Below are positions 9,917-10,261 of a stretch of 17,427 nt of DNA, in pieces. The DNA is from Escherichia coli. GTDB lineage: Bacteria; Pseudomonadota; Gammaproteobacteria; Enterobacterales; Enterobacteriaceae. Below the pieces are notes generated by a model. The model saw only the letters and a list, made by a program, of their open reading frames with translations. It had not been told where the DNA came from and ran no database searches. The stretch lies in assembly GCF_003334305.1 (NCBI RefSeq), contig NZ_QOWS01000040.1, one strand, 5' to 3'. Position 1 is the stretch's first letter; each line of letters starts with the position of its first letter. The position numbers and the translations under genes were made by a program.

Positions 9917-10261
9917 AGCCGGGAGCGGCGTCAGCCAGTCTCCCTTTACCCGCGCTTTTTCGGAAAGCCCACCCCAATGTTTTTCTCCTACACCCCAGCC
10001 GGTCAGCAGGACCTTATCCCCGGTCTGATATTCAGGATGTGAGCTGGCGGACACTGTACCGGCAAAATCAATGCCTGGCACCATTGGAAAGTGCCGGACG
10101 ATAGGCCCGCGGCCCGTAATAGCCAGTGCGTCTTTGTAGTTGATAGATGAACAGTCGACATTGACCTCCACATCCCCCTGTGGCAGCTCGCTTTCAGCGA
10201 TTTCAGCAATTTGGGCACTGTGGCGACCATCCATCTTACTGATTAATAAGGATTTAAACAT
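9917..10261 (-). pseudogene. 5' fragment of an acuI/yhdH-like MDR-family oxidoreductase (acrylyl-CoA reductase-like), truncated by the IS911-like element
   Basis: Translation [110 protein letters not shown]… aligns with the N-terminal third of E. coli YhdH/AcuI (about 324 aa). The frame then runs into the IS left end at 9916. Likely start is the Met at 10261 with GAGA upstream; the track starts at 10291. Confidence 0.75.

Follow-up and report, generated by a model that had tools for sequence, protein, structure and literature searches.

Escherichia coli normally carries a core yhdH/acuI gene. An acrylate-hypersensitive yhdH mutant is described in PMC3338564, and PMC4029986 gives acuI as the gene encoding acrylyl-CoA reductase. 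Solved structures represent YhdH of Salmonella and E. coli (PDB 3nx4 and 1o89) and AcuI (5gxf). The literature found on AcuI/YhdH deals with function, and a junction between acuI and IS911 was not described in it. IS911, a 1250-bp element of the IS3 family (IS3 group), ends in inverted repeats tipped TG...CA. Its DDE transposase is made by programmed -1 frameshifting at A AAA AAG, and a simple insertion is flanked by a 3-bp direct target duplication. Here we analyse an acuI fragment adjoining an IS911-like element in a stretch of E. coli DNA of 17,427 nucleotides (contig NZ_QOWS01000040.1 of assembly GCF_003334305.1), referred to below as the window.

The acuI fragment and its junction with the IS

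The region around the fragment contains the following features (window coordinates).

8338-8669, minus strand: 3′ end (~109 codons) of an unrelated gene left of the IS, with a frame that stays open as far as the IS; named 'NAD(P)-binding domain-containing protein' by PGAP
8670-9916, minus strand: IS911-like IS3-family element, 1247 bp, decayed and hybrid; left inverted repeat (IRL) tip at 9916, right inverted repeat (IRR) tip at 8670 (TGTTGTGG instead of TGAAGTGG)
8670-9725, minus strand: part of the IS of the fec-linked type, with ~100 diagnostic sites, none of the acuI-linked type; 99.5% identical to the fec-linked IS of TW10690 (L012)
9572-9847, minus strand: orfA of the IS
9726-9826, no strand: putative crossover interval, 101 bp, over which both parental IS types are identical
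9827-9916, minus strand: end of the IS of the acuI-linked type, with 5/5 diagnostic sites (9827, 9835, 9846-9848) as in the IS911 of CFT073-type genomes
9914-9916, minus strand: TGA stop of the shortened acuI reading frame; these three bases open the left inverted repeat of the IS (5′-TGAAGTGG)
9917-10261, minus strand: acuI pseudogene, a 5′ fragment with codons 1-115 of 327 that encodes the GroES-like catalytic domain alone
10262-10556, minus strand: native acuI upstream (promoter/leader) region, conserved with an intact plasmid copy
10557-10865, no strand: island DNA separating the acuI upstream region from the IS1-like element, 309 bp, no long ORF; collinear with the 027_SK3 locus (L009)
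10866-11629, minus strand: IS1-family element, 764 bp, frameshifted transposase; NCBIfam transpos_IS1

From the ATG at 10261 down to 9917, the minus-strand frame comprises exactly 115 sense codons (MFKSLL...GDWLTPLPA), followed by TGA at 9916-9914; this is 35% of the full protein. Residues 1-115 matched 3nx4 (E=3.7e-47), 1o89 (E=5.7e-45) and 5gxf (E=6.8e-35). Pfam ADH_N, the sole Pfam domain found, covered residues 28-114, and the NCBIfam model acrylyl_AcuI (NF051456) was matched over positions 1-114 of 325 (E=1.5e-51). Judged by these values, the similarity to the AcuI/YhdH family is far above chance, in line with the ~115 codons of an acuI/yhdH-like MDR reductase that had been proposed for 9917-10261 on the basis of the letters. 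The NF051456 score of the fragment was 175.1 bits, below the curated cutoff of 440 that is set for full proteins. By family comparison, then, the fragment stems from an AcuI-equivalog gene, yet is no complete member of the family.

An MDR reductase is built from a GroES-like domain and a Rossmann-type NADPH-binding domain, of which the fragment has ADH_N alone. The original prediction had also credited it with entry motifs of the NAD(P)H fold, and this did not hold: the dinucleotide-binding motif GASGGVG occupies residues 155-161 of the intact allele described below, and ADH_zinc_N its residues 159-272, both past the break at residue 115. The lone glycine-rich stretch of the fragment (residues 88-98) sits within the GroES-like domain. 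Since the entire Rossmann/NADPH domain is gone, the 115-codon product should be unable to act as a reductase, and the fragment is best read as a non-functional relic. Its pseudogene status is already on record in RefSeq, where PGAP lists it as 'alcohol dehydrogenase catalytic domain-containing protein; incomplete; missing C-terminus'; it is an ordinary gene fragment at an IS scar. The label acuI (acrylyl-CoA reductase) pseudogene would suit it better than that of a coding gene or of a generic protein with an alcohol dehydrogenase domain.

The fragment runs directly into the terminal repeat of the IS. The IRL begins with TGAAGTG, which stands in reverse complement (CACTTCA) at positions 9910-9916, and homology to intact acuI alleles breaks off exactly at 9916|9917, the IS thus supplying the stop codon. 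The 3′ two-thirds of the gene were not found on the other side. Searches of the window with the intact allele (tblastn, and blastn at word size 7) detected no acuI residues 116-327, all matches being chance matches with E>0.1, and tblastn with an approximate K-12 YhdH query likewise found no 3′ acuI part in the window. All 12 chromosomes that share the window arrangement carry one acuI piece only, the 5′ one. Among 5426 complete E. coli genomes, no IS911 was found bordered on its other side by acuI nucleotides 346-984, and at least 80% of the acuI 3′ part was present solely in the four genomes with an intact gene and in nine with an IS100 split. The window searches bear out the earlier statement that the missing part does not lie across the IS. 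The DNA flanking the element ends in ...gtc on the left and starts with agc... on the right, so that the 3-bp target-site duplication of IS911 and the IS3 family is absent.

The gene remnant across the IS (8338-8669) shares the strand of the fragment and is oxidoreductase-like, and could be mistaken for the missing acuI half. It was ruled out as such, having no AcuI similarity by tblastn or blastn. Its own Pfam and PDB matches were weak, the best PDB match being the oxidoreductase domain of STEAP3 (E=0.11), and a shorter ATG-initiated ORF at 8319-8582 gave no NCBIfam match. The remnant always travels with fecE and the fec-linked IS.

Intact alleles and decay states of acuI in E. coli

Intact acuI was recovered in 4 of the 5426 complete E. 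coli genomes. These copies came from DNA searches; the protein-homologue search covered proteins of up to 200 aa and showed other shortened versions of 140, 154 and 193 aa. In E. coli 027_SK3 the intact gene measures 984 nt (L009:7999-8982) and lies in the order BCCT transporter - DUF2254 - acuR - acuI - IS1 - antiporter - Orn/Lys/Arg-type decarboxylase - antiporter - IS1. Its product contains ADH_N (28-114), ADH_zinc_N (159-272) and GASGGVG (155-161) and scored 478.6 bits against the AcuI cutoff of 440 (NF051456), and the convergent TetR-family neighbour scored 266.6 bits against the AcuR cutoff of 247. The fragment differs from this allele at three positions in 345 nt, with 2 of 115 residues changed, and the whole of window 9917-17427 is collinear with the 027_SK3 locus at 98.7% identity.

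Conjugative plasmids of Enterobacter, Citrobacter, Klebsiella and Leclercia carry intact relatives with the same upstream region (80-94% nucleotide identity). The existence of such related copies argues that the gene behind the fragment was an accessory, mobile acuI copy. We consider it very likely that the fragment is the 5′ piece of a second, accessory acuI, encoding an NADPH-dependent acrylyl-CoA reductase of the YhdH subfamily of MDR reductases. Because E. coli normally has a core gene as well, loss of the accessory copy would probably be tolerated.

Window 9917-10553 is 93.9% identical to the intact copy of plasmid pE76_001; homology to plasmid acuI loci ends at ~10556, and 10557-10865 had no match in the plasmid collection. 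Within the upstream region, 45-63 bp before the acuI start, lies a perfect palindrome (GTCAATA-N5-TATTGAC, 10306-10324), the arms of which are conserved in pE76_001, with a different spacer. As a candidate operator, it might be bound by the TetR regulator of AcuR type encoded next to intact alleles. In a scan for promoters and terminators, no signal in 9800-10900 exceeded the level of shuffled sequence.

Some piece of this acuI occurs in 981 of the 5426 genomes. A 60-nt probe spanning the acuI/IS junction was fully covered in 366 of them, including CFT073 (in its selC island) and the type strain ATCC 11775, which makes an assembly artefact an unlikely explanation for the junction. The left flanks vary among carriers and include the CFT073 selC island, psiE′/nhaC and fec. 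An exact search with 36 nt of the junction returned no match among species-representative genomes, though the E. coli type strain carries the junction in the E. coli collection.

The same gene has decayed in other ways elsewhere. In VE-T9, for example, IS100 splits acuI at about codon 140 and both halves are present. At a distant locus, about 600 genomes carry acuR with no more of acuI than its final 300 nt; some genomes have both the 5′ scar and this 3′ relic, separated by 1.4 Mb in 13P484A, and lack the 339 nt in between. The relic of E. coli 13P484A (L008, 6001-6300) ends at a non-IS breakpoint beside a DeoR-rbsK-fucP cluster, and window-type genomes have this cluster to the right of the 5′ fragment, ~15-20 kb away. 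This position hints at an older inversion or deletion that may have split the island. On the chromosome GCA_976942855.1 (L004, 8001-10320), an IS3-family element has split a 91%-identical acuI homologue by simple insertion; both halves are kept, in the order ADH_N, IS, ADH_zinc_N. An HxlR regulator lies upstream of the gene and the TetR regulator downstream. Here an IS struck the same gene family independently.

Make-up of the IS911-like element and its flanking modules

Both ends of the element align with the ends of PGAP-labelled IS911 and form terminal inverted repeats with TG...CA tips (IRL, TGAAGTGGCACACTGAATTTGGCCACC; IRR, TGTTGTGGTCAACTAAAACTGGCCTCC). Identity to IS911-family copies was 93.0% over 912 bp and 95.5% over 419 bp (loci L002 and L013), which agrees with the IS911-like character assigned to it originally, the name IS911 being taken here from PGAP labels. 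The A-run of the slippery site is one base short (A5G vs A6G), which leaves the relative frame of orfB wrong. In addition, a 1-nt deletion near 8992 splits orfB into two frames, so that no intact DDE transposase remains; PGAP marks the IS as frameshifted. The IRR tip is mutated as well (TGTT vs TGAA). With its defective slippery site, frameshifted orfB and mutated IRR tip, the element is predicted to be immobile. In ATCC 43896 the same IS also holds a group II intron (ltrA), at the equivalent of window position 9155/9156.

We aligned the window IS with the fec-linked IS of TW10690 (L012) and with the acuI-linked IS911 of 6EVA (L013), the latter interrupted by IS30. The window element followed the fec-linked copy from 8670 to 9725 and the acuI-linked copy from 9827 to its tip, with the two parental types indistinguishable in the 101 bp between. 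The last ~190 bp of the element are identical to a PGAP-labelled IS911 copy, and the assignment of this side to the acuI-linked type is based on five diagnostic positions within 22 bp (9827-9848) and on the identical junction. The hybrid segment 9700-9850 was found at 100% in 12 genomes only, which are exactly those with the order fecE - remnant - IS - acuI′. Both parental junctions occur independently elsewhere, and the fec-linked parental IS has other right flanks in L011 and L012. The mosaic probably arose by IS-IS recombination between the acuI-linked IS911 and the fec-linked copy; short-tract gene conversion instead of a reciprocal crossover would give the same pattern in the IS.

The identical acuI breakpoint is adjoined by two IS sequences that differ by 5-7%. 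The original prediction held that acuI was truncated by the IS911-like insertion, and this can be kept in part: the fragment does end at the IS tip. The present element was not the cutter, however, given that the same breakpoint stands beside a 5-7% divergent IS911 and that the last ~90-190 bp of the window IS appear to come from the older acuI-linked copy.

On the left of the junction, window 235-7780 contains a complete fecIRABCDE ferric-citrate uptake operon, followed at 7781-9917 by the fecE-distal spacer, the NAD(P)-binding gene remnant and the IS. The fec genes, the remnant and the IS also form a module at other chromosomal sites; in TW10690 the right flank of the fec-linked IS is an integrase gene beside a tRNA-Leu gene. 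On the right, the IS1-family element bounds the acuI remnant on its other side and occupies the same place beside the intact acuI allele. Its insA/insB-like ORFs are frameshifted and its sequence is divergent, with no 9-bp target duplication detected by eye. Beyond it, a three-gene module on the plus strand (11825-17342) encodes a basic amino acid/polyamine antiporter of 489 aa, an Orn/Lys/Arg-family decarboxylase of 789 aa and a second antiporter of 499 aa. The best NCBIfam match of the decarboxylase is arginine decarboxylase, at 740 bits against a cutoff of 1167, and no equivalog model assigns its substrate; the module looks like a decarboxylase/antiporter system of the acid-resistance type. 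By gene content, the acuI/IS junction divides two accessory IS-bounded modules that also occur separately in other genomes: to its left fec with the IS, to its right acuI-IS1-antiporter/decarboxylase. The fragment had been thought to mark the boundary of the original backbone, a view that cannot be maintained, as neither side is core chromosome.

Proposed history, alternatives and comparison with known systems

The mosaic IS argues for an older truncation scar that was later joined to the fec operon by recombination of two IS copies. The ancestral block would have been BCCT transporter - DUF2254 - acuR - acuI - IS1 - antiporter - Orn/Lys/Arg-type decarboxylase - antiporter, acquired horizontally and still whole in a few E. 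coli chromosomes. In an ancestor of many E. coli lineages, the left end of an IS911 would have come to lie after acuI codon 115, with the 3′ two-thirds lost there. This original truncation presumably followed an IS911 insertion; it may have come about by insertion and then deletion, or by IS-IS recombination. In the lineage of the window, the acuI-linked IS911 would then have recombined with the 5-7% divergent and already decayed IS911-like copy downstream of fecE. A crossover within 9726-9826 would have brought together the fecIRABCDE module and the acuI′ - IS1 - decarboxylase module, with a single hybrid IS remaining. The residual 115-codon ORF would have kept its start and upstream region and come to end at the TGA inside the IS tip. 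Taken as a whole, this account of an acuI relic, an older truncation and a later IS-IS recombination bringing in fec is, in our view, very probably correct.

The exact abutment of fragment and IS tip could also be read as simple transposition, in which the window element inserted into an intact acuI and the 3′ part lies across the IS or would be recovered by revising its boundaries; simple splits of this gene do exist, by IS100 in VE-T9 and by the IS3-family element in L004. This reading is already refuted by the absence of residues 116-327 from the window and of a second acuI piece from all 12 window-type chromosomes, and it fits poorly with the remnant on the left, the lack of a 3-bp duplication and a hybrid IS with a broken transposase; we leave it next to no chance. 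The missing target duplication, the unrelated left flank and the hybrid IS point instead to rearrangement, in agreement with the preference for deletion or rearrangement over simple insertion expressed at the outset. A rearrangement of another kind would be an adjacent deletion in situ, whereby a single IS911-like element in or near acuI, acting through its transposase and in one step, removed everything as far as fec, so that no second IS copy took part by recombination. IS3-family elements can cause adjacent deletions, the absent target duplication is compatible with one, and the initial loss of the acuI 3′ part may well have happened in this way. It would leave unexplained, however, the abrupt switch from fec-linked to acuI-linked haplotype at 9726-9826, the identical fecE-remnant-IS left junction in many genomes that lack acuI, and the identical acuI junction beside a divergent IS911, and as an account of the present locus it is unlikely.

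A different question is whether the 115-codon ORF has been kept as an expressed mini-protein, a stand-alone GroES-like domain with a new role. Start codon, native upstream region and in-frame stop are all kept, the junction probe matches 366 genomes, and of 405 records that match the fragment with its upstream DNA, 394 do so at 99% identity or more. Such identity is nevertheless expected from recent common descent of the island, with no need for selection, and three nucleotide differences from the intact allele are too few for testing constraint. The cofactor domain is absent, PGAP calls the fragment a pseudogene, and other lineages cut the gene elsewhere (at ~140 codons, or down to the last 300 nt). 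This variety of truncation points suggests random decay, and we regard a retained mini-protein as very improbable. Equally slight is the chance that either the GroES-like domain is expressed and functional, for instance as a dominant partner in the core YhdH dimer, or the decayed hybrid IS is a recurrent recombination hotspot that shuffles fec and decarboxylase modules among E. coli islands.

The identical junction of acuI codon 115 with IS911 (366 of 5426 genomes) offers a clean, datable marker, and the hybrid IS occurs in only 12 genomes. If, as we favour, an old acuI scar was later joined to fec by recombination between two IS copies, both scars would record homologous IS-IS recombination, not transposition, bringing the ferric-citrate operon beside an amino-acid decarboxylase/antiporter island. 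Scars of this kind may be usable for tracing the ancestry of island modules. The hybrid IS, as a record of how fec became linked to the island, is the new observation of this analysis, and an only modestly new one.

Compared with the AcuI/YhdH family (MDR012 subgroup; PDB 1O89, 3NX4, 5GXF; NF051456, TIGR02823), residues 1-115 of the fragment align end to end with the N-terminal GroES-like domain. Protein identity to E. coli YhdH is ~61%, against an approximate reference sequence, and reaches 98% to the intact island allele, which scores above the AcuI cutoff and has a TetR regulator of AcuR type as its neighbour. The fragment differs from the family in having neither the Rossmann/NADPH domain nor the C-terminal part of the catalytic domain, and in being an accessory, IS-flanked, plasmid-related copy and not the core yhdH locus. 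The window IS resembles IS911 in its length (1247 bp), TG-tipped inverted repeats, orfA/orfB arrangement and ~93% nucleotide identity to PGAP-labelled copies, whereas its A5G heptamer, frameshifted orfB, mutated IRR tip, lack of a target duplication and mosaic of two diverged copies set it apart. With respect to the IS-bounded fec module of E. coli (TW10690, with a leuX/intB-type integrase; IAI39), window 7781-9917 is 99.2-99.6% identical. In those genomes the right end of the IS adjoins an integrase or a polysaccharide deacetylase gene, whereas in the window it adjoins acuI codon 115 and bears the terminal sequence of the other IS.
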